Shown here piece after piece: positions 532 through 7,374 of a DNA stretch of 64,000 nucleotides; positions within the stretch are counted from its first letter, which is position 1; each line of letters begins with the position of its first letter. The position numbers and the translations under genes were made by a program. Under the pieces are notes generated by a model, which saw nothing but the letters and a program-made list of their open reading frames with translations, was not told the origin of the DNA and ran no database searches. Source of the stretch: a phage; sequence record PX246730.1. One strand, 5' to 3'.

Positions 532-1947
532 ATGAGCGAGTTATTCAAACATGCGCACCTTCATGCAGGTCGAACTGAAAATGGTGCTGTAAACCATACT
601 TCATCAATGTCTGCTCTGGTAGACTTCTACAAAGCCGCTGGCTCAAGCCGTAGCAATGTAGAAATCTTACCAGACCTGTTCTACAAAGCTTTGCGTGAGG
701 ATGTTGATGTTGCAGTTCGTATTTTACTGCATATGCGAGATGTACGAGAAGGTATGGGTGAGCGTAAAGCCTTCAGAACTGTTTTGCTTCAAGCGATTGA
801 AGACAAAGTTTTAGAGCCTACACAGGTTCTTCGCATTATGGATAAGATTGCAGAGCTTGGTCGTTTTGATGACTTCAAAATCTTCGTAGGTACTCGTTTT
901 GAGACAGATGCCTTTAAGCATTTAGAAGCAGCATTACTAGACCCTGAGACAGCAGGTTTAGCAGCCAAGTGGTTACCACGAGTAAAACCACGACACAAAC
1001 AGTTTGTAAAACGTTTCTGTAAGTTTGCAAACTTAAGCGAGAAAGAGTATCGCACACTGTTATCTGCACTGTCTGATACGGTTGAGCAAAAAATCTCTGC
1101 TAATGAGTTTGGTAAGATTGATTACAGTAAGATTCCTTCTCTTGCTGCTGCACGTTACCAAAAACTCTTTAACCGTAAAGATGGAGAACGCTACAAAGCT
1201 TACATTGAGTCGCTATCAAAAGGTGAAGCTAAGATTAATGCTGGTGCTGTCTACCCATACGATGTGATTAAATCTATCAAGCATGGTAATGCAGATGTTG
1301 CTAATGAGCAGTGGAAAGCACTACCAAACTGGATGGCAGAAGGTGAGAACATCTTGTGTATGACTGATGTCTCAAGCTCAATGTCTTGGGTGAATCTTGG
1401 TTCAATCACGGCTCTTGATATTGGTGTATCTCTTGCCCTGTATGTAGCAGAACGCAATACTGGTTGCTTTAAGAATGAGTTAATGGTTTATTCAACAAAC
1501 CCTCATTTCATTGAACTGAGTGGTGATTTACGAAACCGTCATCGTCAGGTGATGCGACACGTTGAATATGGTTCAACTAACTTACAAGCAGCTTTTGACC
1601 GTATTCTTGAGACAGGTAAAAGAAACAACTTGACTCAGAAAGATATGCCAAGTAAGCTTATCATCTTCTCAGATATGGAATTCAATCAGGTTGATGGAGC
1701 TAATGGTCGTACAAACTTTGAAGCAATTCAGAGTAAGTACAAAAAAGCTGGATATGAGATGCCACAACTGGTATTCTGGTACTTAGCAAACCGTAATGGT
1801 ACTTGCGAAGTGTCTGTTAAGGATAACGGTGTAGCAATGGTATCTGGTTTCTCTCCAGCCACTTTAAAAGCTCTGCTTGGTGGTGAGAAGTTTGACCCAA
1901 CCAGCGTAATGCTCAAAGCAGTAATGATTGACCGTTACATCTGGTAA
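532..1947 (+). CDS. vWA-domain protein (471 aa), possibly TROVE/Ro60-like architecture
   Basis: C-terminal MIDAS-like motif D-V-S-S-S (CMTDVSSSMSW) typical of von Willebrand A domains; about 270 aa helical N-terminal region. Confidence 0.6.
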   Translation: MSELFKHAHLHAGRTENGAVNHTSSMSALVDFYKAAGSSRSNVEILPDLFYKALREDVDVAVRILLHMRDVREGMGERKAFRTVLLQAIEDKVLEPTQVLRIMDKIAELGRFDDFKIFVGTRFETDAFKHLEAALLDPETAGLAAKWLPRVKPRHKQFVKRFCKFANLSEKEYRTLLSALSDTVEQKISANEFGKIDYSKIPSLAAARYQKLFNRKDGERYKAYIESLSKGEAKINAGAVYPYDVIKSIKHGNADVANEQWKALPNWMAEGENILCMTDVSSSMSWVNLGSITALDIGVSLALYVAERNTGCFKNELMVYSTNPHFIELSGDLRNRHRQVMRHVEYGSTNLQAAFDRILETGKRNNLTQKDMPSKLIIFSDMEFNQVDGANGRTNFEAIQSKYKKAGYEMPQLVFWYLANRNGTCEVSVKDNGVAMVSGFSPATLKALLGGEKFDPTSVMLKAVMIDRYIW

Positions 1948-1994: not shown

Positions 1995-2056
1995 GTCCTA
2001 CATAGAAACGAAATGAGAGCTTTTCTAAGATACTGAAAAATATTTTAAAAAAGTTC

Positions 2057-2086
2057 TTGACAACCACTAAAAAATAATGTTAAAGT
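2057..2086 (+). promoter_or_regulatory. sigma70-like promoter candidate preceding tRNA cluster
   Basis: TTGACA 2057-2062, -10-like TAAAGT about 2081-2086, immediately upstream of first tRNA. Confidence 0.4.
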
Positions 2087-2112
2087 GGTTACATAGAGTT
2101 TGAAAAGTTTAT

Positions 2113-2186
2113 CTCTGTTTAGCTCAGCTTGGTAGAGCGTTCCGTTTGGGGCGGTAAGGCCGGAGGTTCAAGTCCTCCAACAGAGA
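2113..2186 (+). tRNA. tRNA-Pro(TGG)
   Basis: 7 bp acceptor CTCTGTT/AACAGAG, D-stem GCTC/GAGC, anticodon loop ttTGGgg, T-arm GGAGG-TTCAAGT-CCTCC, CCA encoded. Confidence 0.7.
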
Positions 2187-2196
2187 CCAAATTAAT

Positions 2197-2271
2197 GTTC
2201 CAGTAGACAAAATGGTATAGTCACCACTCTTTCAAAGTGGATATTTGAGGGTTCAAATCCCTTCTGGAACG
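2197..2271 (+). tRNA. tRNA-Glu(TTC)
   Basis: acceptor GTTCCAG/CTGGAAC, anticodon stem CCACT/AGTGG with loop ctTTCaa, T-loop TTCAAAT, CCA encoded. Confidence 0.7.
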
Positions 2272-2285
2272 CCAGTTTTGACAGA

Positions 2286-2352
2286 AGACCAATTGCAGCA
2301 AACTTAATCTTATTCATCTGAAGGTAAATCGGACAAAGAAGAGATTTGGTCT
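2286..2352 (+). repeat. spacer hairpin element copy a (CAGAAGACCAA ... TTGGTCTGG)
   Basis: inverted repeat AGACCAA/TTGGTCT flanking about 55 nt; conserved internal motif cagcaaaCTTAA; first of four paralogous copies. Confidence 0.6.
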
Positions 2353-2365
2353 GGTCATTAAGAAT

Positions 2366-2439
2366 TGCGGGTATAGAGAAAGGGCGTCTCACATGTCTCA
2401 TTAGCATGGTATCGGCAGGTTCGACTCCTGCACCCGCCT
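2366..2439 (+). tRNA. tRNA with CAT anticodon (Met, fMet or Ile2)
   Basis: acceptor pairs with ACCCGCC with 1:72 mismatch, D-stem GAGA/TCTC, anticodon stem CATGT/GCATG with loop ctCATta, T-arm GCAGG-TTCGACT-CCTGC. Confidence 0.55.
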
Positions 2440-2452
2440 CCAAATTTACAGA

Positions 2453-2511
2453 AGACCGTTTACAGCAATACTTATTAAATTTTTAGCGGAAAAAATTGAA
2501 AGATACGGTCT
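2453..2511 (+). repeat. spacer hairpin element copy b (AGACCGT ... ACGGTCT)
   Basis: same conserved 5' motif tttacagaagaccgtttacagcaa and 3' ggtctggtaat as copies a, c, d. Confidence 0.6.
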
Positions 2512-2526
2512 GGTAATACTAAACAT

Positions 2527-2600
2527 GGTTAGGAAGCACATAAGGTATGTGCGGTCGCCTGTTAAGCGAATGGCACAGGGTTCGAATCCCTGACTAACCG
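2527..2600 (+). tRNA. tRNA-Asn(GTT)
   Basis: acceptor GGTTAGG/ACTAACC (6 of 7 bp), anticodon loop ctGTTaa, T-arm CAGGG-TTCGAAT-CCCTG. Confidence 0.6.
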
Positions 2601-2611
2601 CAAAATTTAAA

Positions 2612-2698
2612 TGTGTCGTTATCCCGTAGATGGTAGCGGTGGGGACTGTAAATCCCTTGTCATTGAGACTCGGTAGGTTCGACTCCTACACGGCACAC
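2612..2698 (+). tRNA. tRNA-Tyr(GTA)
   Basis: acceptor TGTGTCG/CGGCACA, anticodon stem GGGGA/TCCCT with loop ctGTAaa, long variable arm, T-loop TTCGACT, CCA encoded. Confidence 0.7.
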
Positions 2699-2764
2699 CA
2701 ATTTTGAGAGGGCTATTTAGCCCCTCCCTTAAAGAGTTCTTACGAGTATTCTTTAAAGGAGCAG

Positions 2765-2833
2765 AAGACCAAATACAGCAAGTTACTTAAAATTTCAAGC
2801 CAATTTAATTTTGAAAAATTTAAAACTTGGTCT
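2765..2833 (+). repeat. spacer hairpin element copy c (AGACCAA ... TTGGTCT)
   Basis: conserved gcagaagaccaaatacagcaagttacttaa and cttggtctgg. Confidence 0.6.
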
Positions 2834-2852
2834 GGCTCAACAAATTTACAGA

Positions 2853-2978
2853 AGACCGTTTACAGCAAAACTTAAACAATCTATTTCTCTGGTAAAGAAA
2901 AGGCGAAGGTTCGATTCCTTCACTCGGCAGATGTCGAGTTGGTGTAATGGTAGCACTTAAGATGATAAACAACGGTCT
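2853..2978 (+). repeat. spacer hairpin element copy d, enclosing tRNA-like pieces
   Basis: inverted repeat AGACCGT (2853-2859) / ACGGTCT (2972-2978) flanks the permuted tRNA-Thr-like segment. Confidence 0.6.
2884..2957 (+). tRNA. tRNA-Thr(GGT)-like, apparently circularly permuted (3' two-thirds upstream of 5' third)
   Basis: 2884-2929: anticodon arm TTTCT-ctGGTaa-AGAAA, T-arm GAAGG-TTCGATT-CCTTC, 3' acceptor ACTCGGC plus discriminator; 2933-2957: 5' acceptor GTCGAGT (pairs 7 of 7 with ACTCGGC incl. one GU) plus complete D-arm GTGT-aatggta-GCAC. Confidence 0.35.
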
Positions 2979-3129
2979 GGTAATTATCTTTGTAGATAAG
3001 TTATTAAGCTTACCTGTGAGTATGCGACCACAAAGGGTGAAAGGGTAAATTCTAGATTTAAACCCAACAAGGCACATCGCTACAGACCTTAAGCAAGTCT
3101 GGGTAGCTTATCTACAAAGATAATTTAAT

Positions 3130-3202
3130 GGAAGTGTAGCAGAATGGTGATGCGGCAGACTTTTAATCTGACAGGCGATGGGTTCGAATCCCTCCACTTC
3201 TA
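3130..3202 (+). tRNA. tRNA-Lys(TTT) (probable)
   Basis: acceptor GGAAGTG/CACTTCT, anticodon loop ctTTTaa, T-loop TTCGAAT, CCA encoded; T-stem imperfect. Confidence 0.55.
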
Positions 3203-3209
3203 CCAATAT

Positions 3210-3283
3210 GGTTCAGTCGCAGATAAGGTAATGCAGGGGTCTCATAAGCCCTATGAATGTGGGTTCGATTCCCATCTGAACCT
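3210..3283 (+). tRNA. tRNA with CAT anticodon (Met, fMet or Ile2)
   Basis: perfect acceptor GGTTCAG/CTGAACC, anticodon stem GGGGT/GCCCT with loop ctCATaa, T-arm GTGGG-TTCGATT-CCCAT, CCA encoded. Confidence 0.65.
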
Positions 3284-3288
3284 CCAAT

Positions 3289-3361
3289 GCTGTGAAAGCA
3301 CATATGGATGTGCATTCGGCTGATAACCGAAAGGAAGAAGGTTCGAATCCTTCTCACAGTA
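3289..3361 (+). tRNA. tRNA-Ile(GAT)
   Basis: acceptor GCTGTGA/TCACAGT, D-stem GCAC/GTGC, anticodon stem TTCGG/CCGAA with loop ctGATaa, T-arm GAAGG-TTCGAAT-CCTTC, CCA encoded. Confidence 0.75.
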
Positions 3362-3379
3362 CCAATTTCAATAAAGTTG

Positions 3380-3408
3380 TTGACACTGAGATGTGACTAC
3401 TTTATAGT
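3380..3408 (+). promoter_or_regulatory. sigma70-like promoter (TTGACA-N17-TATAGT) inside tRNA cluster
   Basis: -35 TTGACA 3380-3385, -10 TATAGT 3403-3408. Confidence 0.55.
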
Positions 3409-3613
3409 AACCTTAGTTTTCGTTGCGTAGCGTCTATTTTGCAAATTTAAAATAAATGCAAACGACAATGTTTTTCTGGCAGTAGCTTGATAGGCTAAAC
3501 ACCAGTGAGGTCTTCCAATCCCTCATCAAAGAATTTGGCGTACTAGCCCACGGTATGATTAATAAGGTGGGCATCTTTAAGGGCTTTCTAAGAGAGTCTT
3601 TAAAGATTAATTA

Positions 3614-3692
3614 CGGGGCGTATCTCATCTGTCTTCTAAACAGACGTTAACCGAGTAAGTGGAGTATGCGGGTTCGAGTCCTGCCGCCTCGA
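3614..3692 (+). tRNA. tRNA-like element with TCT (Arg-type) anticodon loop, atypical D region
   Basis: acceptor CGGGGCG/CGCCTCG, perfect anticodon arm TCTGT-ctTCTaa-ACAGA, T-loop TTCGAGT, CCA encoded; only 7 nt between acceptor and anticodon stem, 22 nt before T-arm. Confidence 0.4.
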
Positions 3693-3838
3693 CCAATTTA
3701 GTTAGCAGATTACTTAGACGACCTAAGCGGGTCTTCCTGTAGGGAGGTGGTCTGTATCTCATGTTTTCCAGAACATGTAAATAATCTGAGAAGGGGCTTT
3801 ACAGTGTTGAGATAATACGGTAAGCTTCGAATTATAGT

Positions 3839-3918
3839 ATGGGACGATGTTAAGACTCTAAGGCATGAGCAACGGCTTCCAACACCGTTTCAAAGGGGTT
3901 CGACTCCTCCGTCCCATG
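3839..3918 (+). tRNA. tRNA, anticodon unresolved (possibly Trp CCA)
   Basis: perfect acceptor ATGGGAC/GTCCCAT, T-loop TTCGACT, CCA encoded; anticodon region ACGG-cttCCAaca-CCGT has a 9-nt loop. Confidence 0.45.
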
Positions 3919-3934
3919 CCAAAGTCTTATTAGG

Positions 3935-4022
3935 GGTAGGTAGCGGCTAATGGTAGCCAAACTGTCTTGAAAACAGTTGCCACTGTAGAGATACGGTGAG
4001 GGTTCGACTTCTTTACTTACCG
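3935..4022 (+). tRNA. tRNA-Ser(TGA)
   Basis: acceptor GGTAGGT/ACTTACC, anticodon arm ACTGT-ctTGAaa-ACAGT, long variable arm, T-loop TTCGACT. Confidence 0.7.
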
Positions 4023-4178
4023 CCTAATAAGATTTTAAAGCCAAGCTTCATTCGGATGTTGCTTTGGTATCCCTCGTGTTGTCGAACACACTAATAAAGC
4101 ACCTAGTAGGTGTCACGGAGAAGAGATAATATCAAGCTCTCCAAAGGTTCTAGTCACCGGATTAAACAAGACTATGCA

Positions 4179-4200
4179 AAGACCTTTTTAGGTCTTTTTA
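4179..4200 (+). terminator. hairpin plus T-run (possible intrinsic terminator or processing site)
   Basis: AAGACC-ttttta-GGTCTT followed by TTTA. Confidence 0.4.
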
Positions 4201-4278
4201 GAGGGCTTCTAAGGTTATTACAGCTTGTTGTGGAACCTTGTTGCTTAGGTTCTTAGAAGTTCTCTAAAAAGATTTAAT

Positions 4279-4353
4279 GGGAGATTGACGGTAATTGGTA
4301 AACCTATCTCGCTTAGAACGAGATGTTTGAGGGTTCGAATCCCTTGTCTCCTA
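4279..4353 (+). tRNA. tRNA-Leu(TAG), short variable loop
   Basis: acceptor GGGAGAT/GTCTCCT, anticodon arm ATCTCG-ctTAGaa-CGAGAT, T-arm GAGGG-TTCGAAT-CCCTT, CCA encoded. Confidence 0.55.
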
Positions 4354-4363
4354 CCAAATTAAT

Positions 4364-4436
4364 GCAGGTGTAGCAAAATGGTTATGCGGCTGACTCTTAA
4401 TCAGTAAGACGATGGGTTCAATTCCCTCCACCTGTA
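4364..4436 (+). tRNA. tRNA-Lys(CTT) (probable)
   Basis: acceptor GCAGGTG/CACCTGT, D-stem GCA/TGC, anticodon arm GCTGA-ctCTTaa-TCAGT, T-loop TTCAATT, CCA encoded. Confidence 0.6.
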
Positions 4437-4445
4437 CCAGATATT

Positions 4446-4518
4446 GGGGATGTAGTTTACATGGTTAAAACATAAGTTTTGCAAAATTAAGTACAGGGTT
4501 CAATTCCCTGCTTCTCCA
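4446..4518 (+). tRNA. tRNA-Ala(TGC)
   Basis: acceptor with G3:T70 wobble pair (Ala identity element), D-stem GTTT/AAAC, anticodon loop ttTGCaa, T-arm CAGGG-TTCAATT-CCCTG, CCA encoded. Confidence 0.65.
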
Positions 4519-4527
4519 CCAATTAGT

Positions 4528-4599
4528 GCATCCATAGTTTAAACGGGAAAATTACAGTCTTCCAAACTGAGGTTGAGGGTTCGATTCCCTCTGGATGCT
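4528..4599 (+). tRNA. tRNA-Gly(TCC)
   Basis: perfect acceptor GCATCCA/TGGATGC, anticodon arm CAGT-ctTCCaa-ACTG, T-arm GAGGG-TTCGATT-CCCTC, CCA encoded. Confidence 0.7.
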
Positions 4600-4608
4600 C
4601 CAAATAAT

Positions 4609-4682
4609 GCTGCTTTCGTATAATTGGCTATTACACATCCCTTGTAAGGATGGAAATGCAGGTTCGAGTCCTGTGAGCAGCA
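4609..4682 (+). tRNA. tRNA-Thr(TGT)
   Basis: acceptor GCTGCTT/GAGCAGC, anticodon arm CATCC-ctTGTaa-GGATG, T-arm GCAGG-TTCGAGT-CCTGT, CCA encoded. Confidence 0.75.
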
Positions 4683-4780
4683 CCAATTCAGAGGTCAAGT
4701 GAAAGACCGCTGGTGTCAACTGAAGACCGTAACAAATTCCACGGAGTTGAGTTAGCGGCACAACTTCAGACCTCTTTCAC

Positions 4781-4852
4781 ACTCGCTTAGTTTATATGGT
4801 AAAACACCACCCTTACAAGATGAAGAAAAAGGTTCAAGTCCTTTAGTGAGTA
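4781..4852 (+). tRNA. tRNA-Val(TAC) (tentative; weak anticodon stem)
   Basis: acceptor ACTCGCT/AGTGAGT, D-stem GTTT/AAAC, loop ctTACaa, perfect T-arm AAAGG-TTCAAGT-CCTTT, CCA encoded. Confidence 0.45.
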
Positions 4853-4856
4853 CCAT

Positions 4857-4931
4857 GTTCCAGTATCCCAATTGGCAGAGGATGCAAGCTCAAACCTTGT
4901 ACTAGTGACGGTTCGAATCCGTCTTGGAACA
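4857..4931 (+). tRNA. tRNA-Leu(CAA), short variable loop
   Basis: acceptor GTTCCAG/TTGGAAC, D-stem TCC/GGA with 11-nt loop, anticodon arm GCAAG-ctCAAac-CTTGT, T-arm GACGG-TTCGAAT-CCGTC, CCA encoded. Confidence 0.55.
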
Positions 4932-4939
4932 CCAATTTT

Positions 4940-5012
4940 GCAGGATTAGTTCAAATGGATAGAGCAACAGTCTACGAAGCTGTTAATAGGGGTTCGAATC
5001 CCTTATCCTGCG
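4940..5012 (+). tRNA. tRNA-Arg(ACG)
   Basis: perfect acceptor GCAGGAT/ATCCTGC, anticodon arm ACAGT-ctACGaa-GCTGT, T-arm TAGGG-TTCGAAT-CCCTT, CCA encoded. Confidence 0.75.
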
Positions 5013-5034
5013 CCAATTTAAAGAGGCTATTTAG

Positions 5035-5592
5035 ATGAGATATTTGAAGTATGCTTCATGGATTTTCTTAGCTTTGTTAGAGCCATTTGCAGCAATCTTA
5101 GCAGTAATTTTAGCACCCTTTGTGGTTCCATTCTACAGTGAAAAGAAAGGACACTTACCTTTTGGATTCAGATGGATGGAGACTTATGATAACCCAATTG
5201 ATGGTGACAAAGGCCACGTTGAGAGATGGGCTAAGATTAGAAAGATTGGTAAGCTCGGTGTTTATATGCAGAGAGTTGGATGGCTCTGGAGAAACAAAGC
5301 TTATAACTTCTCTTACCATGTGCTAGGAAGAGATGTAAAAGATGTTACTAAGTGGAAAGGTAATATCAACGTAAGTTCTAACCCTGAAGATAATCAGACA
5401 GGTTATCTCCTAATGTGGAACAGTAATGCTTGGGGATTATTCGCTTTTACCCCATCAATTAAAATCTTTGGTAAACAATTCTACTGGAGAATTTATGTTG
5501 GATGGAAACTTAAAAGTGTTGTCCCAGAAGAAAGAGCATTCTCAAGGGAAAGAGTTATGTTGGCATTCTTTATTCATCCACTAAGAAAGTAA
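5035..5592 (+). CDS. hypothetical membrane protein (185 aa) embedded in tRNA cluster
   Basis: ORF track; hydrophobic N-terminal segment (IFLALLEPFAAILAVILAPFVVPF); Trp/aromatic-rich. Confidence 0.5.
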   Translation: MRYLKYASWIFLALLEPFAAILAVILAPFVVPFYSEKKGHLPFGFRWMETYDNPIDGDKGHVERWAKIRKIGKLGVYMQRVGWLWRNKAYNFSYHVLGRDVKDVTKWKGNINVSSNPEDNQTGYLLMWNSNAWGLFAFTPSIKIFGKQFYWRIYVGWKLKSVVPEERAFSRERVMLAFFIHPLRK

Positions 5593-5600
5593 AGATTTAA

Positions 5601-5673
5601 AGGGGATTAGTTTACAAGGTTAAAACCTCGGTCTTTGAAATCGAAGAAGTTGGTTCAATTCCAACATCCCCCA
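5601..5673 (+). tRNA. tRNA-Gln(TTG)
   Basis: acceptor AGGGGAT/ATCCCCC (1:72 mismatch), D-stem GTTT/AAAC, anticodon arm TCGGT-ctTTGaa-ATCGA, T-arm GTTGG-TTCAATT-CCAAC, CCA encoded. Confidence 0.6.
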
Positions 5674-5678
5674 CCAAT

Positions 5679-5754
5679 GCTCCATTACTCCAATTGGCAG
5701 AGAGGCCAGACTTAAAATCTGTGTTATGTATCGGTTCGAATCCGATATGGAGTA
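5679..5754 (+). tRNA. tRNA-Leu(TAA), short variable loop
   Basis: acceptor GCTCCAT/ATGGAGT, D-arm paralogous to the CAA tRNA (caattggcaga), loop ctTAAaa, T-arm ATCGG-TTCGAAT-CCGAT, CCA encoded. Confidence 0.55.
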
Positions 5755-5762
5755 CCAAATTT

Positions 5763-5835
5763 AGCGGTATAGCATAACTGGCAATGCAGCAGTCTCTGAA
5801 GCTGTCCTATTAAGGTTCAAATCCTTATGCCGCTG
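5763..5835 (+). tRNA. tRNA-Gln(CTG)
   Basis: acceptor AGCGGTA/TGCCGCT, anticodon arm GCAGT-ctCTGaa-GCTGT, T-arm TAAGG-TTCAAAT-CCTTA, CCA encoded. Confidence 0.6.
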
Positions 5836-5869
5836 CCACTTCTAAGGGTTCTTACGAGAGTCCTTAAAT

Positions 5870-5942
5870 GTGGCCTTATCATAAAAGGTAATGACCCATG
5901 CTGTGAACATGGTCTATACGGGTTCAAATCCCGTAGGTCACC
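5870..5942 (+). tRNA. tRNA-His(GTG)
   Basis: acceptor GTGGCCT/AGGTCAC, anticodon arm CCATG-ctGTGaa-CATGG, T-arm ACGGG-TTCAAAT-CCCGT, CCA encoded. Confidence 0.75.
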
Positions 5943-5950
5943 CCAATTTA

Positions 5951-6024
5951 TAGTCCAAGTAGCTTATATGGTAAAGCGCGTGTCTGAAAAACATGAGAAG
6001 AGGGTTCAAATCCCACTGGACTAC
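5951..6024 (+). tRNA. tRNA-Phe(GAA)
   Basis: acceptor TAGTCCA/TGGACTA, anticodon arm CGTGT-ctGAAaa-ACATG, T-loop TTCAAAT. Confidence 0.7.
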
Positions 6025-6042
6025 CAATTTCAAAGGTGCTTA

Positions 6043-6777
6043 ATGAAAGAGATGACAGAACAAGGTAAGGAGATTTTTAATCTCTTAAAAACCGGTAGAG
6101 GGTTTTCTAATCCCCTTATTACTGGTGCAGCAGTTCTCGGTGGAACCGTAGCTGCCTCTACATCACTTGTAAGCTCTATTAGCTCTGTAACAGACCCTAC
6201 AATAAAAGATAAGCTTGTTGCTGCTGGGCTTACAACAGTCCTCCTAAACAGCTTTACAACAAGCCTGACAAGCACTACAGCAACTACTAAGACCCTGACA
6301 GACTACGGTCAAAAGTCTATTGATGAGTTTTCATCACGTATGCAGGTAGCAAAGGGATACTCCAATGTTATGGGTGCAGCAGGAGAACAAGTTGGTTGTA
6401 CACCATTCAGTGGTATTATGGGTGTTGCTACAGAGTATGGTCAAAAAGCTATTGACATGATGAACAGTACACTAGATAGTGTTAATGGTGTGTTAAGTGA
6501 CTTACAAGATGCTATTGATAAGGGTCTTGATACTGTTTCTGATTTAGCTAACCAAGCTGTTAGTAAGATTAATGAAGGTATCTCGAAGATTACAGCTTAT
6601 GCAGATGAAGTTGTGCAGATGATTGAAGAAGAAGCTGCCCTTATTGCAGAGTACCTTAAAACGAATATCAATGGGTTCTTAGCAGGTATCTTACCAGACT
6701 GGTTTGATGATGCCTGTAAAACTGGTGTAATTGACACTATTGCAACACCAGAAATGAAGAGCGCATTACAGAAATAA
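6043..6777 (+). CDS. hypothetical Ser/Thr-rich protein (244 aa)
   Basis: ORF 5827-6777 trimmed to ATG at 6043 because upstream part overlaps tRNA-His/Phe; no motif recognised. Confidence 0.5.
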   Translation: MKEMTEQGKEIFNLLKTGRGFSNPLITGAAVLGGTVAASTSLVSSISSVTDPTIKDKLVAAGLTTVLLNSFTTSLTSTTATTKTLTDYGQKSIDEFSSRMQVAKGYSNVMGAAGEQVGCTPFSGIMGVATEYGQKAIDMMNSTLDSVNGVLSDLQDAIDKGLDTVSDLANQAVSKINEGISKITAYADEVVQMIEEEAALIAEYLKTNINGFLAGILPDWFDDACKTGVIDTIATPEMKSALQK

Positions 6778-6778
6778 T

Positions 6779-6868
6779 GGAAGATTAACCCTAAAAGGTA
6801 AGGGAGCAGTTTGCTAAACTGCCAGTAGCTGAGAAATCGGTGTACCAGTTCAAGTCTGGTATCTTCCT
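6779..6868 (+). tRNA. tRNA-Ser(GCT)
   Basis: perfect acceptor GGAAGAT/ATCTTCC, perfect anticodon arm GCAGT-ttGCTaa-ACTGC, long variable arm, T-arm ACCAG-TTCAAGT-CTGGT, CCA encoded. Confidence 0.8.
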
Positions 6869-6875
6869 CCAATTT

Positions 6876-6948
6876 GAATCCGTGACAGAAATGGATATGT
6901 GCCTGTCTGCAAAACAGGTTTATAAGGGTTCGAGTCCCTTCGGATTCT
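6876..6948 (+). tRNA. tRNA-Cys(GCA)
   Basis: perfect acceptor GAATCCG/CGGATTC, perfect anticodon arm CCTGT-ctGCAaa-ACAGG, T-arm AAGGG-TTCGAGT-CCCTT, CCA encoded. Confidence 0.8.
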
Positions 6949-6988
6949 CCAAGTTATTTTACTCTCTCTCAATTAAAATAATAATAAT

Positions 6989-7048
6989 GCCCTGCTATAA
7001 GTATTCTTCCTTTCGCTACCGAAGAGTATTTTTAGACAGGGCTTTTTT
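6989..7048 (+). terminator. long hairpin plus T6 run, likely terminator at end of tRNA operon
   Basis: GCCCTG ... CAGGGC stem followed by TTTTTT (7043-7048). Confidence 0.55.
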
Positions 7049-7113
7049 ACAGAGTTATACTTTATAGGAAGACTTATACAGTATGTCTCTGACGTACATT
7101 GTGGTTTCTCCTT

Positions 7114-7137
7114 GACGGTCTCTGTGCCGTCTTTTTT
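7114..7137 (+). terminator. intrinsic terminator-like hairpin
   Basis: GACGG-tctctgtg-CCGTC followed by TTTTTT. Confidence 0.5.
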
Positions 7138-7173
7138 AAGGAGAAACAAGATTAATTATTTGGAGAAAACATA

Positions 7174-7374
7174 ATGAGTGAGAACGTTTATAAAGAACTT
7201 TATGAAGCTAACAAGAAGTTAGAGTTTATGCAGAATACTATCATGGCAATTGCAGATAGATTATCTGTAGCAACAGGTATTGATATTAAAGAAGCATCTA
7301 TGGATGCACTTCTTGATGCTGTTGATGCAAAGTTCGAAGTTAAGAAAGAAGAGACTGCTACAGACTCTGAATAA
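7174..7374 (+). CDS. hypothetical protein (66 aa)
   Basis: ORF track, RBS-like GGAG upstream; immediately precedes terminase. Confidence 0.45.
   Translation: MSENVYKELYEANKKLEFMQNTIMAIADRLSVATGIDIKEASMDALLDAVDAKFEVKKEETATDSE

Follow-up and report, generated by a model that had tools for sequence, protein, structure and literature searches.

What is encoded in the stretches of a phage tRNA cluster that contain no tRNA? The window analyzed here, 64,000 nucleotides of a Felix O1-like phage (PX246730.1), contains a tRNA cluster with four such spacers, 3409-3613, 3696-3838, 4023-4278 and 4686-4780. A sequence-only reading had proposed that these spacers, because they contain several perfect hairpins within a promoter-driven tRNA operon, could plausibly encode phage small RNAs. 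We first asked whether the underlying observation holds, and it does: all four spacers and all of the hairpins are present in the sequence. CTTAG-acgac-CTAAG is at 3713-3727, CATGTT-ttccag-AACATG is at 3760-3777, AAGACC-ttttta-GGTCTT is at 4179-4196 and is followed by a T run, and the two arms of a long-range pairing, GTGAAAGA and TCTTTCAC, are at 4699-4706 and 4773-4780. Each spacer folds better than dinucleotide shuffles, with z = -3.75 for 3365-3613, z = -2.46 for 3696-3838, z = -3.46 for 4025-4278 and z = -2.96 for 4686-4780. The segments taken as tRNAs between the spacers are real tRNA-like genes that ARAGORN misses. One correction is needed: the short ORFs in the spacers (48 aa or less) lie on both strands, and not only on the strand opposite the tRNAs as had been claimed.

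The features that we identified in and around the spacers, all on the plus strand, are as follows.

3380-3408 (+), predicted sigma70-type promoter, with -35 TTGACA at 3380-3385, a 17-nt spacing and -10 TATAGT at 3403-3408
3415-3572 (+), predicted tmRNA-like RNA lacking a tRNA-like domain
3416-3422 (+), 5' motif GUUUUCG, at the position of the tmRNA D-loop analogue (GAUUCGAC)
3458-3493 (+), tag reading frame GCA AAC GAC AAT GTT TTT CTG GCA GTA GCT TGA TAG (ANDNVFLAVA followed by two stops), preceded by AUAAAU
3476-3505 (+), stop-codon hairpin (helix 5 analogue), outer CTGG 3476-3479 with CCAG 3502-3505, inner TAGC/GCTA, with the stop codons in the loop
3506-3538 (+), pseudoknot a, stem TGAGG 3506-3510 with CCTCA 3521-3525 and loop CCAA 3515-3518 with TTGG 3535-3538
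3539-3572 (+), pseudoknot b, CGTACT 3539-3544 with GGTATG 3552-3557 and hairpin GCCCAC 3546-3551 with GTGGGC 3567-3572
3573-3607 (+), 16-bp perfect hairpin between the tmRNA-like RNA and the next tRNA(-like) gene, a likely processing element
3614-3695 (+), tRNA-Arg(UCU)-like gene without a D arm, with a conserved 20-nt insert and encoded CCA
3742-3791 (+), conserved core of spacer 2, GGGAGGUGGUC and then the hairpin CATGTT 3760-3765 / AACATG 3772-3777
3807-3837 (+), promoter-like site ahead of the Trp-like tRNA
3839-3921 (+), unusual tRNA-Trp(CCA)-like gene with an 8-bp acceptor stem and an enlarged D region
4096-4199 (+), conserved core of spacer 3 with hairpins CACCU/AGGUG and GGAGA.../...UCUCC, ending in the terminator-like hairpin AAAGACC 4178-4184 / GGTCTTT 4191-4197 plus a U run
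4195-4277 (+), long hairpin immediately before tRNA-Leu(UAG)
4686-4780 (+), structured element of spacer 4, outer helix AGAGGTC 4690-4696 / GACCTCT 4769-4775, containing GAAGACCGTAACA at 4722-4734

We next wanted to determine the identity of spacer 1, which the sequence-only reading had not recognized as a tmRNA-like RNA with a tag reading frame. The Rfam tmRNA model aligns AAAAUAAAU-GCAAACGACAA to its resume region with high posterior probability, and the permuted-tmRNA model matches the same stretch, with weak full-length hits. Both scores are far below the threshold of 47 bits that applies to each model (15.6 bits for RF00023 and 24.7 bits for RF04321), and ARAGORN makes no tmRNA call in the window. 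In the related phages Moogle and HP1, however, ARAGORN reads the same tag, ANDNVFLAVA followed by two stops, as a tmRNA tag. Homologues with 70-100% identity are found in 651 of 50,697 phage records, spanning Ounavirinae, Kuttervirus, Schitoviridae, several siphovirus genera and phage-plasmids, as well as at more than 110 IMG/VR loci. Homologues are also present in 339 of 5,426 E. coli genomes, mostly on plasmids of about 100 kb. Almost all of these are unannotated and score below Rfam thresholds. In the literature we found no paper describing this RNA beyond a one-line remark in the Moogle genome announcement, which reports an ssrA gene on the basis of an ARAGORN call (PMC4319497).

The predicted structure is strongly supported by covariation. 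In an alignment of 37 representative sequences, 89.1% of cells pair, compared to 39-52% when the partners are slid, and 97 cells show changes on both sides, compared to a shuffle mean of 30 (0 of 500 shuffles reach this value). In the stop-codon hairpin, the outer pair at alignment columns 94-118 is GC in 20 sequences and AU in 16. All four pairs of the pseudoknot stem of pseudoknot a change on both sides (for example GC 14, AU 13, CG 6), and in pseudoknot b the pair at columns 166-189 is CG in 23 sequences, GC in 11 and UA in 3, with none broken. The hairpin stem of pseudoknot b has different sequences in different lineages (GCCC/GGGC, GACGGGAG/CUCCCGUC, GGCUUCCA/UUGGAAGC). Without guidance, RNAalifold recovers stem 1 of pseudoknot a and also pseudoknot b.

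The tag frame varies as a coding sequence would. In 47 distinct versions, variation has a 3-nt periodicity and falls on third codon positions and on conservative replacements: GAT/GAC/GAA at codon 3, GCC/GCT/GCG at codon 10, and F/Y/V at codon 6 in all but two versions (one I, one A). Every version ends in a stop, although some positions were fixed by the search pattern used to collect them; the five homologues found by BLAST, independently of that pattern, all keep the frame. These observations argue against spacer 1 being a decaying, non-functional fragment of host ssrA picked up by recombination. It is clearly related to ssrA and incomplete, but it has its own promoter, its helices are maintained by compensatory changes, its frame is intact in dozens of diverged versions, and it is present in virulent phages of several families, making decay a remote possibility.

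The promoter matches 11 of 12 consensus positions and sits just before spacer 1. Promoter-like hexamers lie at the same distance upstream of GUUUUCG in swi2, Erwinia phage Tian and phage-plasmid homologues, while in siphoviruses the RNA sits between tRNA-like cassettes. Downstream, the 16-bp hairpin is predicted in the minimum-energy fold, and in Felix O1, LF82P9 and HP1 a different long hairpin takes its place (AACAUUCUAAAGGGUA...UACCCUUUAAAAUGUU).

Does the RNA possess a tRNA-like domain? A systematic search in tmRNA topology around 81 distinct loci found none. Every acceptor 3' strand found downstream has a perfect or near-perfect local 5' partner (7 or 6 of 7 pairs); only two loci had an equally good match just upstream of GUUUUCG, and both also had a local partner. 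In the window, the promoter lies directly upstream of the 5' motif, and there is no acceptor stem belonging to the RNA and thus no G3:U70 alanine identity pair of its own. We considered the adjacent tRNA-Arg(UCU)-like gene as the alanine-accepting domain, as in the window it has G3:U70, A73 and CCA. This was rejected because G3:U70 is missing in 2 of 5 homologues, the anticodon loop CUUCUAA is invariant, and a canonical tRNA-Arg(UCU) occupies the same site in LF82P9, SPJ41, ESh19 and HP1. The gene scores 33.4 bits with the Rfam tRNA model (threshold 29), with acceptor stem, anticodon arm, T arm and CCA present but the D arm reduced to 4 nt, and ARAGORN does not call it. Its homologues in Vequintavirinae, T5-like, jumbo and Kuravirus phages have a covarying anticodon stem. 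The predicted interaction of the tmRNA-like RNA with this gene was no better than with shuffles. In Kuttervirus, an upstream arm ending in ...GAGCACCA pairs in cis with the leader and at first suggested a permuted tmRNA gene, but the ACCA is not conserved in a second Kuttervirus (L120), so the arm is just a long cis hairpin, probably a processing site.

A related alternative is a genuine two-piece, circularly permuted tmRNA, of the type found in alpha- and beta-proteobacteria and cyanobacteria (RF04321, RF01849), in which spacer 1 would be the coding piece and a permuted tRNA-like element upstream (2843-2990: T arm, closed acceptor hairpin, D arm) the acceptor piece, the two together rescuing ribosomes and adding the phage tag. 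ARAGORN makes exactly this call in Moogle and HP1, where the acceptor hairpin loop encodes G-CCA, and the translated-looking tag would fit. We nevertheless regard this as very unlikely. The call spans 749 nt, the two parts lie about 540 nt apart with three tRNA genes (Lys, Met, Ile) and a promoter between them, and the coding RNA does not begin with the 5' acceptor strand that defines a coding piece. The acceptor stems have C3-G70 (window) or A3-U70 (Moogle) rather than G3:U70, and CCA is absent from the loop in the window, Felix O1 and ESh19, where ARAGORN makes no call. Most lineages with the RNA (siphoviruses, Kuttervirus, phage-plasmids, Schitoviridae) showed no such element next to it, and the element is better explained as a YrlA-like Y RNA, as described below.

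The 5' end of the RNA (UAGUUUUCGU) is complementary to tag codons 3-6 of host ssrA. Across the 37 representatives, six of the seven bases of GUUUUCG are invariant and the seventh is at least 90% conserved. With its flanks, the motif has 8-11 nt of perfect complementarity to E. coli ssrA nt 96-107 in 32 of 37 representatives, extended on either side depending on lineage. The target is identical in the ssrA of Salmonella arizonae, Klebsiella, Citrobacter, Erwinia and Pectobacterium, a comparison that did not include S. enterica proper. Salmonella ssrA encodes ANDETYALAA, but S. arizonae was found to have ANDENYALAA. The window's 25-nt leader gives -22.6 kcal/mol against ssrA, compared to -17.9 +/- 2.1 for shuffles (p = 0.02), whereas duplex predictions with whole RNAs gave only meaningless full-length duplexes. 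The motif could instead be conserved simply as the homologue of the tmRNA D-loop analogue, or as an RNase E or transcription-start context, in which case the complementarity is chance; for an 8-mer landing inside the 30-nt tag frame we estimate a probability of about 4e-4. In Kuttervirus the motif is also the part paired in cis with the upstream arm. Looking for a seed adapted to a different host tag, we found that Aeromonas phage pIS4-A is of the E. coli type and that phiA050 has GUUUUCU and the tag ANDSEMRVAA, which is uninformative without the host sequence.

Compared to enterobacterial ssrA (RF00023), the RNA keeps the order of elements: a D-loop-analogue-like 5' motif, a possible PK1-like hairpin (weakly supported and absent from the window's short form), an A-rich upstream region with U at -5 and A at -4, the resume codon GCA, a 10-codon tag beginning A-N-D/E and ending in small hydrophobic residues, stop codons held in a hairpin, and H-type pseudoknots after the frame. 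It differs in lacking both acceptor strands, the T arm and CCA, in having two pseudoknots after the tag instead of three, and in a tag that ends LAVA, LMAA or LAAA instead of ALAA. We favor a model, with a probability of roughly 0.6, wherein spacer 1 is a gene for a small RNA of about 160-195 nt derived from the host tmRNA gene, transcribed from its own sigma70 promoter, with a 3' end probably made by processing at the long hairpin and by RNase P cleavage at the downstream tRNA-like gene. Without an acceptor stem, such an RNA could not be charged with alanine and so could not rescue ribosomes alone. We propose that it acts on host trans-translation, its single-stranded 5' end pairing with the tag-coding region of host tmRNA and either blocking normal tagging or presenting the phage tag frame in its place. 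That this is a structured RNA gene derived from tmRNA is very likely, that it acts on trans-translation in some way is only slightly more likely than not, and that it does so by pairing with host tmRNA is doubtful. The homology to tmRNA, the structure, the spread among phages and the coding-like conservation of the tag are established by our comparisons, whereas the expression, ends and stability of the RNA, and any effect on trans-translation, are inferences from sequence. There is also a tension within the model, as a conserved tag frame implies translation by trans-translation, which needs a linked alanyl tRNA-like domain, and none was found.

One way to reconcile a translated-looking tag with the absence of this domain, which the evidence leaves possible but which we consider unlikely, is tag swapping. 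Here the phage RNA would dock by its 5' end onto the tag-coding region of host tmRNA (nt 81/96-106), masking the host resume codon, and because the pairing is antiparallel, the phage's own A-rich upstream region and GCA resume codon would emerge next to host pseudoknot 1. Ribosomes rescued by host alanyl-tmRNA/SmpB would then resume on the phage frame and add AN(D/E)xx(Y/F)LAVA instead of ANDENYALAA, changing the fate of tagged proteins during infection. This would be the first case of a virus reprogramming tmRNA with a trans-acting template. Alternatively, the RNA could be a pure decoy, neither translated nor paired with host tmRNA, that soaks up factors binding the mRNA-like and pseudoknot part of tmRNA (ribosomal protein S1, RNase R, secondary SmpB sites). 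The retention of tmRNA-like structure without a tRNA-like domain fits this idea, and the TLD-only mini-tmRNA of mycobacteriophage DS6A (PMC4131195, PMC11915505) offers a precedent, being a partial phage tmRNA suggestive of interference with host trans-translation rather than autonomous rescue. DS6A keeps the complementary half, only the tRNA-like domain, and belongs to a different phage family with a different host. We find a decoy unlikely, as it does not explain the codon-periodic, conservative variation of the tag frame and its stop codons, or the conservation of the 5' motif.

tmRNA is regarded as a single molecule, or a paired two-piece molecule, whose tRNA and mRNA functions are inseparable, and the phage tmRNAs cataloged so far are complete genes in mycobacteriophages and Bacillus phage G, plus the one TLD-only fragment. 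Here, a relative of the mRNA part only is conserved, with compensatory changes and an intact tag frame, and occurs in more than 1% of sequenced phage genomes, across virulent myoviruses, podoviruses, siphoviruses and phage-plasmids of Enterobacterales, including model and therapy phages such as Felix O1 and the Kutterviruses. If it acts on ribosome rescue, it identifies trans-translation as a common target of phage takeover, with a testable handle of one small RNA, one 10-nt seed and one predicted peptide tag. It also argues for a new covariance model for phage annotation and explains the odd permuted-tmRNA calls in Felix O1-like genomes.

We then asked whether the remaining spacers also carry RNA genes. 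Overall, the proposal that the spacers encode small RNAs is partly supported: on comparative evidence they carry RNA genes rather than filler, but two of the four hairpins offered in its favor are not conserved, and parts of the spacers are more simply read as promoters, a terminator and long pre-tRNA hairpins. The CTTAG hairpin is broken without compensation in LF82P9 and the Mooglevirus relatives, and the outer bases of the GTGAAAGA/TCTTTCAC pairing change without compensation in Mooglevirus. The CATGTT hairpin is kept in Felixounavirus and Mooglevirus, where the core of spacer 2 is identical while its flanks diverge; in Erwinia phage Tian the motif AAGGAGGUGGUCUGUAUCUC is kept and a different hairpin follows it. 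The AAGACC hairpin and its U run are kept, with changes that preserve pairing, though a consensus scan did not list this site. The core of spacer 3, a stretch of about 90 nt followed by this hairpin, is nearly invariant across Felixounavirus and Mooglevirus, whereas the 5' part (4040-4070) is replaced by three different hairpins. The long hairpin before tRNA-Leu(UAG), predicted in the minimum-energy fold, is kept in Mooglevirus through G-U changes, one change on both sides and a replaced apical part. Spacer 4 is present in 260 phage records, and its outer helix becomes AGAUGUC/GACAUCU, a compensatory change, in the Vequintavirinae phage TH18. The promoter-like site ahead of the Trp-like gene matches 9 of 12 consensus positions, with TTGAGA and TATAGT kept in relatives. 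The Trp-like gene itself gives a weak Rfam hit, but its anticodon stem AACGG/CCGUU becomes GUAAG/CUUAC in ESh19, and ARAGORN calls a tRNA-Trp in the corresponding part of the cluster in relative L141.

It remains possible, though short of an even chance, that spacers 2-4 and the hairpins at the 3' ends of spacers 1 and 3 are only punctuation for the tRNA operon, that is, promoters, a terminator and RNase III/E/P processing stems that yield no stable RNA with a function of its own. The promoter-like and terminator-like sites, the long perfect hairpins that sit directly before tRNA genes as interchangeable alleles, and the two unconserved pairings favor this view, and variation in the cores of spacers 3 and 4 is too low to test covariation. 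Against it, spacer 4 and the spacer 3 core are more conserved across genera than the adjacent tRNA genes, spacer 4 shows the compensatory change in TH18, the spacer 2 core is conserved as far as Erwinia phages, and a motif that recurs in the tRNA region (described below) points to a bound factor.

That the spacers encode small proteins is very unlikely. Some annotators call CDSs here, such as the 48-codon GTG ORF at 4110-4256 annotated in phage NBEco005, whose first 24 codons are nearly unchanged in Mooglevirus, and a 7-codon ORF follows GGGAGGUGGUC, a very strong Shine-Dalgarno-like sequence at 3742-3752 that is complementary to the 3' end of 16S rRNA. However, the GTG at 4110 has no spacing from any Shine-Dalgarno sequence, and by hand translation the C-terminal half of that ORF changes frame and length between relatives; of four codon differences counted by eye, only one is a third-position change. 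Erwinia phage Tian keeps the Shine-Dalgarno-like motif but has no start codon after it, and different annotators call different, mutually inconsistent ORFs.

Small structured RNAs that are co-transcribed and co-processed with phage tRNAs have a parallel in the species 1 and 2 RNAs of T4, although no sequence or structural relationship to them is known. The neighborhood of the cluster suggests another context. Upstream lies a gene (532-1947) for a 471-aa protein that matches DUF2828 and DUF7788 but not TROVE in Pfam, and for which sequence searches against PDB found nothing; in a Foldseek comparison, by contrast, its top 11 hits are all Ro60/TROVE structures (E 2.5e-7 to 6e-6). Next to it, the element at 2843-2990 has V, T arm, closed acceptor stem-loop and D arm in the order of YrlA Y RNAs (PMC4201824), and its acceptor hairpin covaries, with three different sequences that all pair, although the Rfam YrlA model (RF02553) gives no hit at E up to 10. 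Any binding between the two is inferred by analogy. This Ro60-like gene and YrlA-like RNA suggest that the tRNA cluster is a broader RNA-manipulation locus, and some of the structured elements in spacers 2-4 may belong with them. The motif GAAGACCRWWWACA recurs four times on the plus strand, all in the tRNA region, compared to 0.41 matches expected in the whole window, which points to a bound factor, possibly the Ro60-like protein.

The region is the tRNA cluster of a Felix O1-like myovirus (Felixounavirus) and is 96-98% identical over 2000-7200 to Felix O1 and many relatives. ARAGORN finds 24 tRNA genes on the + strand between 2113 and 6951. At the junction after tRNA-Tyr (2701), the window lacks the tRNA-Asp gene that follows tRNA-Tyr in Felix O1 (1266-1342 of L001, our Felix O1 locus), and the HNH homing endonuclease genes that Felix O1 carries between its tRNA genes are also absent from the 3365-4780 stretch. 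The spacers under study are separated by two tRNA-like genes that ARAGORN misses and by tRNA-Ser. They and their neighbors are arranged as follows:

3380-3408, near-consensus sigma70 promoter (TTGACA-17-TATAGT) between tRNA-Ile and spacer 1
3409-3613, spacer 1
3614-3695 (+), tRNA-Arg(UCU)-like gene without a D arm and with a conserved 20-nt insert, 33.4 bits on the Rfam tRNA model
3696-3838, spacer 2
3839-3921 (+), tRNA-Trp(CCA)-like gene with an 8-bp acceptor stem, an enlarged D region and a C-A pair closing the anticodon loop
4023-4278, spacer 3
4686-4780, spacer 4

The anticodon stem of the Trp-like gene covaries in phage ESh19, and ARAGORN calls a tRNA-Trp in the corresponding part of the cluster in a relative (L141).

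The sequence-only reading had noted that these spacers hold several perfect hairpins and could encode phage small RNAs. The observation itself was borne out: all four hairpins it named are present where it placed them, and each spacer folds more stably than dinucleotide shuffles, with z = -3.75, -2.46, -3.46 and -2.96 for spacers 1 to 4. It had also described the ORFs called there as short and on the strand opposite to the tRNAs, but short ORFs lie on both strands, the longest being 48 codons on the + strand. Comparison with relatives sorts the hairpins into two groups. The CTTAG hairpin and the outer part of the GTGAAAGA/TCTTTCAC pairing change without compensation and are not conserved. In contrast, the CATGTT hairpin is kept, with a different hairpin taking its place in an Erwinia phage, and the AAGACC hairpin is kept along with its U run. 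The proposal that the spacers encode small RNAs is partly supported by our analysis, but the important content is different from, and more specific than, what had been proposed.

A sensitive BLAST search with 3365-4290 gave an unexpected result. Positions 3449-3573 match phages unrelated to Felix O1 at 71-87% identity, with nothing annotated there. These phages include Kuttervirus (157 kb), Schitoviridae, 46-48 kb siphoviruses of E. coli and Klebsiella, Erwinia Ounavirinae and a phage-plasmid. The shared stretch reads AAAAUAAAU GCA AAC GAC AAU GUU UUU CUG GCA GUA GCU UGA UAG, encoding ANDNVFLAVA followed by two stops, and closely resembles the enterobacterial tmRNA tag region AAAAAAUAGUC GCA AAC GAC GAA AAC UAC GCU UUA GCA GCU UAA (ANDENYALAA). 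The Rfam tmRNA model aligns the resume region with high posterior probability, though the total scores stay far below threshold (15.6 bits for RF00023 and 24.7 bits for the permuted model, against 47 for each). The five homologs found by BLAST carry the tags ANEEMYLAVA, ANDNTFLAVA, ANDDVVLMSA, ANDAQFLAVA and ANEEVYLAVA.

We next wanted to assess the size of this family. A pattern scan of IMG/VR returned at least 120 loci, more than 110 of which are true homologs, giving 61 distinct sequences. BLAST with 3413-3572 finds 651 of 50,697 phage records: Salmonella (259), Escherichia (178), Klebsiella (90), then Shigella, Erwinia, Citrobacter, Enterobacter and two Aeromonas phages. Almost all have no feature under the match. 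In complete E. coli genomes the sequence occurs in 339 of 5,426, with 247 of 344 places on plasmids, and the plasmid hits listed are about 95-230 kb, mostly near 100-115 kb. In siphoviruses (loci L035, L038, L039, L055 and other 46-48 kb contigs), the tmRNA-like RNA sits within arrays of cassettes closed by the stem CACAAC-AGGUAAGAGCA / UGCUCUUUCC-GUUGUGG, some of which contain a T-arm-like hairpin. One cassette interior (CCCUUAUGGGGCUUGGCUUAAAUGCA) is also found inside the long hairpin that replaces 3573-3607 in Felix O1 (L001, ~2790-2850), LF82P9 and HP1.

To examine structure, we aligned 37 representatives. Without guidance, RNAalifold found the first stem of a pseudoknot after the tag and a second helix further on. 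We then counted pairs on a hand-drawn structure that includes the pseudoknots. In total, 89.1% of cells form standard pairs, against 39-52% when partners are slid by 1-3 columns, and 97 cells show changes on both sides, against a shuffle mean of 30 (0 of 500 shuffles reach this). The outer pair of the stop-codon hairpin is GC in 20 sequences and AU in 16, all four pairs of the pseudoknot-forming helix (CCAA/UUGG in the window) covary, and one pair of the second pseudoknot is CG in 23, GC in 11 and UA in 3, with none broken. The hairpin inside the second pseudoknot has quite different sequences in different lineages. The RNA therefore keeps the tmRNA layout from the resume region through a stop-codon hairpin into H-type pseudoknots. 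Most lineages also have a hairpin upstream of the A-rich region, at the place of tmRNA pseudoknot 1, though its covariation is weak.

The tag frame looks translated. In 47 distinct versions, variation concentrates at third codon positions, with entropy of 1.3-1.5 bits at positions 9, 12, 24, 27 and 30, against 0-0.96 at the first and second positions of those codons. Replacements are conservative: codon 3 is GAT, GAC or GAA; codon 6 encodes F, Y or V, apart from one I and one A; codons 8-9 encode A, M, V or I, apart from one S; and codon 10 is GCC, GCT or GCG. Some positions were fixed by our search pattern, so the stop codon in that set is not independent evidence. The homologs derived from BLAST are independent, and all keep the frame.

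No tRNA-like domain was found. The promoter lies immediately upstream of the conserved 5’ motif, leaving no room for a 5’ acceptor strand, and other lineages have their own promoter-like hexamers, or a tRNA-like cassette, at the same place. We scanned 81 distinct loci for T-arm-plus-acceptor signatures downstream, and only 27 had any. In every case the 3’ acceptor strand had a local 5’ partner (7 or 6 of 7 pairs), so these are ordinary tRNAs or tRNA-like genes. Only two also had a perfect match just upstream of the 5’ motif. The adjacent element at 3614-3695 was an attractive candidate for the alanine-accepting domain, as in the window it has G3:U70, A73 and CCA. We rejected it for three reasons. 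Its homologs in Vequintavirinae, T5-like, jumbo and Kuravirus phages, which share it at 85-88% identity, keep an invariant loop CUUCUAA with a covarying stem; two of the five homologs lack G3:U70; and in LF82P9, SPJ41, ESh19 and HP1 the same site holds a canonical tRNA-Arg(UCU). It is best read as an unusual D-armless tRNA-Arg allele, not as the missing half of a tmRNA. One could speculate that it is a nuclease-resistant or decoy variant.

The 5’ motif GUUUUCG (3416-3422) is essentially invariant, with six of seven bases identical in all 37 representatives and the seventh at least 90% conserved. By position and flanking similarity (UUCG...GA(C/U)UUUGCG), it corresponds to the tmRNA D-loop analogue and the start of helix 2, an inference from an alignment made by eye. 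With its flanks, the motif is perfectly complementary over 8-11 nt to ssrA nt 96-107, which are tag codons 3-6 (GAC GAA AAC UAC). This holds in 32 of 37 representatives, and different lineages extend the match on different sides (UAGUUUUCGU or AGUUUUCGUC). The 25-nt leader in the window is predicted to pair with ssrA 81-106 at -22.6 kcal/mol, against -17.9 +/- 2.1 for shuffles. The target is identical in the ssrA genes of E. coli, Salmonella arizonae, Klebsiella, Citrobacter, Erwinia and Pectobacterium, while none of the 47 phage tag versions contains the complementary GAAAAC. For an 8-mer, we estimate a chance match inside the 30-nt tag frame at about 4e-4. This is suggestive only. In Kuttervirus the motif is paired in cis with an upstream arm, and an RNase E site or a transcription-start constraint could also explain its conservation.

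Taken on sequence evidence, the analysis establishes that spacer 1 encodes a conserved, promoter-equipped, structured RNA derived from tmRNA, without a tRNA-like domain and with a coding-like tag. This widespread relative of tmRNA is essentially undescribed, and it sits in a locus that also carries a Ro60-like gene, a Y-RNA-like element and unusual tRNA variants. That the RNA acts on host trans-translation is our inference. The likeliest route is pairing with or competing with host tmRNA. In the boldest version of this model, which we consider unlikely, the RNA would substitute its own tag frame on host tmRNA. A pure decoy is a serious rival but leaves the coding signature unexplained, and a decayed remnant is very unlikely.

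Previously, the tmRNA Website papers listed phage tmRNAs only in mycobacteriophages, in Bacillus phage G, and as the TLD-only molecule of DS6A. We also reproduced an earlier tmRNA call in phage Moogle: ARAGORN reports a permuted tmRNA of 749 nt with tag ANDNVFLAVA and two stops in Moogle and HP1. It does so by joining a permuted tRNA-like element, about 540 nt upstream, to the tag across tRNA-Lys, tRNA-Met and tRNA-Ile. The acceptor hairpin of that element encodes G-CCA in its loop in Moogle and HP1, whereas the loop lacks CCA in the window, Felix O1 and ESh19, where ARAGORN makes no such call. We do not think that this is a real two-piece tmRNA.

The upstream part of the locus holds three further features:

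532-1947 (+), gene for a 471-aa protein with a predicted Ro60/TROVE + vWA fold
2843-2990 (+), permuted tRNA-like element with the layout of YrlA (bacterial Y RNA)
2284, 2451, 2764 and 2851 (+), repeated unit between tRNA genes, with a near copy of its stem motif at 4722-4734 in spacer 4

The 471-aa protein is annotated only as ‘RNA-binding protein’ (PHROG 850) and matches Pfam DUF2828 and DUF7788. An AlphaFold model (pLDDT 85) has Ro60/TROVE structures as its 11 best PDB matches, including the Ro60 of Thermus phage phiLo (E 2.5e-7 to 6e-6, TM 0.4-0.6). The protein belongs to a large phage family, with 2,904 hits at E <= 1e-5. The element at 2843-2990 has the element order of bacterial YrlA Y RNAs, with a V hairpin, T arm (GAAGG-UUCGAUU-CCUUC), closed acceptor hairpin (ACUCGGC-AGAU-GUCGAGU) and D arm inside the long stem AGAAGACCGUU/AACGGUCU. 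Its acceptor hairpin covaries across relatives, with three different sequences that all pair: ACUCGGC/GUCGAGU, ACACG/CGUGU and ACCCUUC/GAAGGGU. The Rfam YrlA model gives no hit. The repeated unit reads CAGAAGACC(G/A)..UACAGCAA ... (A)C(G/U)GGUCUGGU, and the stem motif GAAGACCRWWWACA occurs four times on the + strand, all in the tRNA region, against 0.41 matches expected in the whole window. The stems differ between copies in a compensatory way (ACCGU/ACGGU versus ACCAA/UUGGU), and the units may be sites for a bound protein or for processing.

Spacers 2-4 hold other conserved elements. Spacer 2 has a 50-nt core that is identical in Mooglevirus while its flanks diverge. The core begins at 3742-3752 (+) with GGGAGGUGGUC (UAAGGAGGUGGUC in relatives), which could pair with the 3’ end of 16S rRNA over up to about 13 nt. 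This motif is kept in an Erwinia phage, where a different hairpin follows it, but no conserved ORF follows it. A promoter-like site lies after the core. Spacer 3 starts with a hairpin that is replaced by three different sequences in relatives, followed by a core of about 90 nt that is nearly invariant across genera, a conserved terminator-like hairpin, and a long hairpin just before tRNA-Leu. The annotated ORFs here are inconsistent and show no coding signature. Spacer 4 is at least 95% identical in Mooglevirus, although the neighboring tRNA-Val differs much more, and it occurs in 260 records. Its outer helix has a compensatory change in a Vequintavirinae phage. Variation in spacers 3 and 4 is too low for a real covariation test. 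Further along the tRNA cluster, a 185-aa ORF at 5035-5592 (+) matches Pfam DUF7338 over its full length (E 5e-62).
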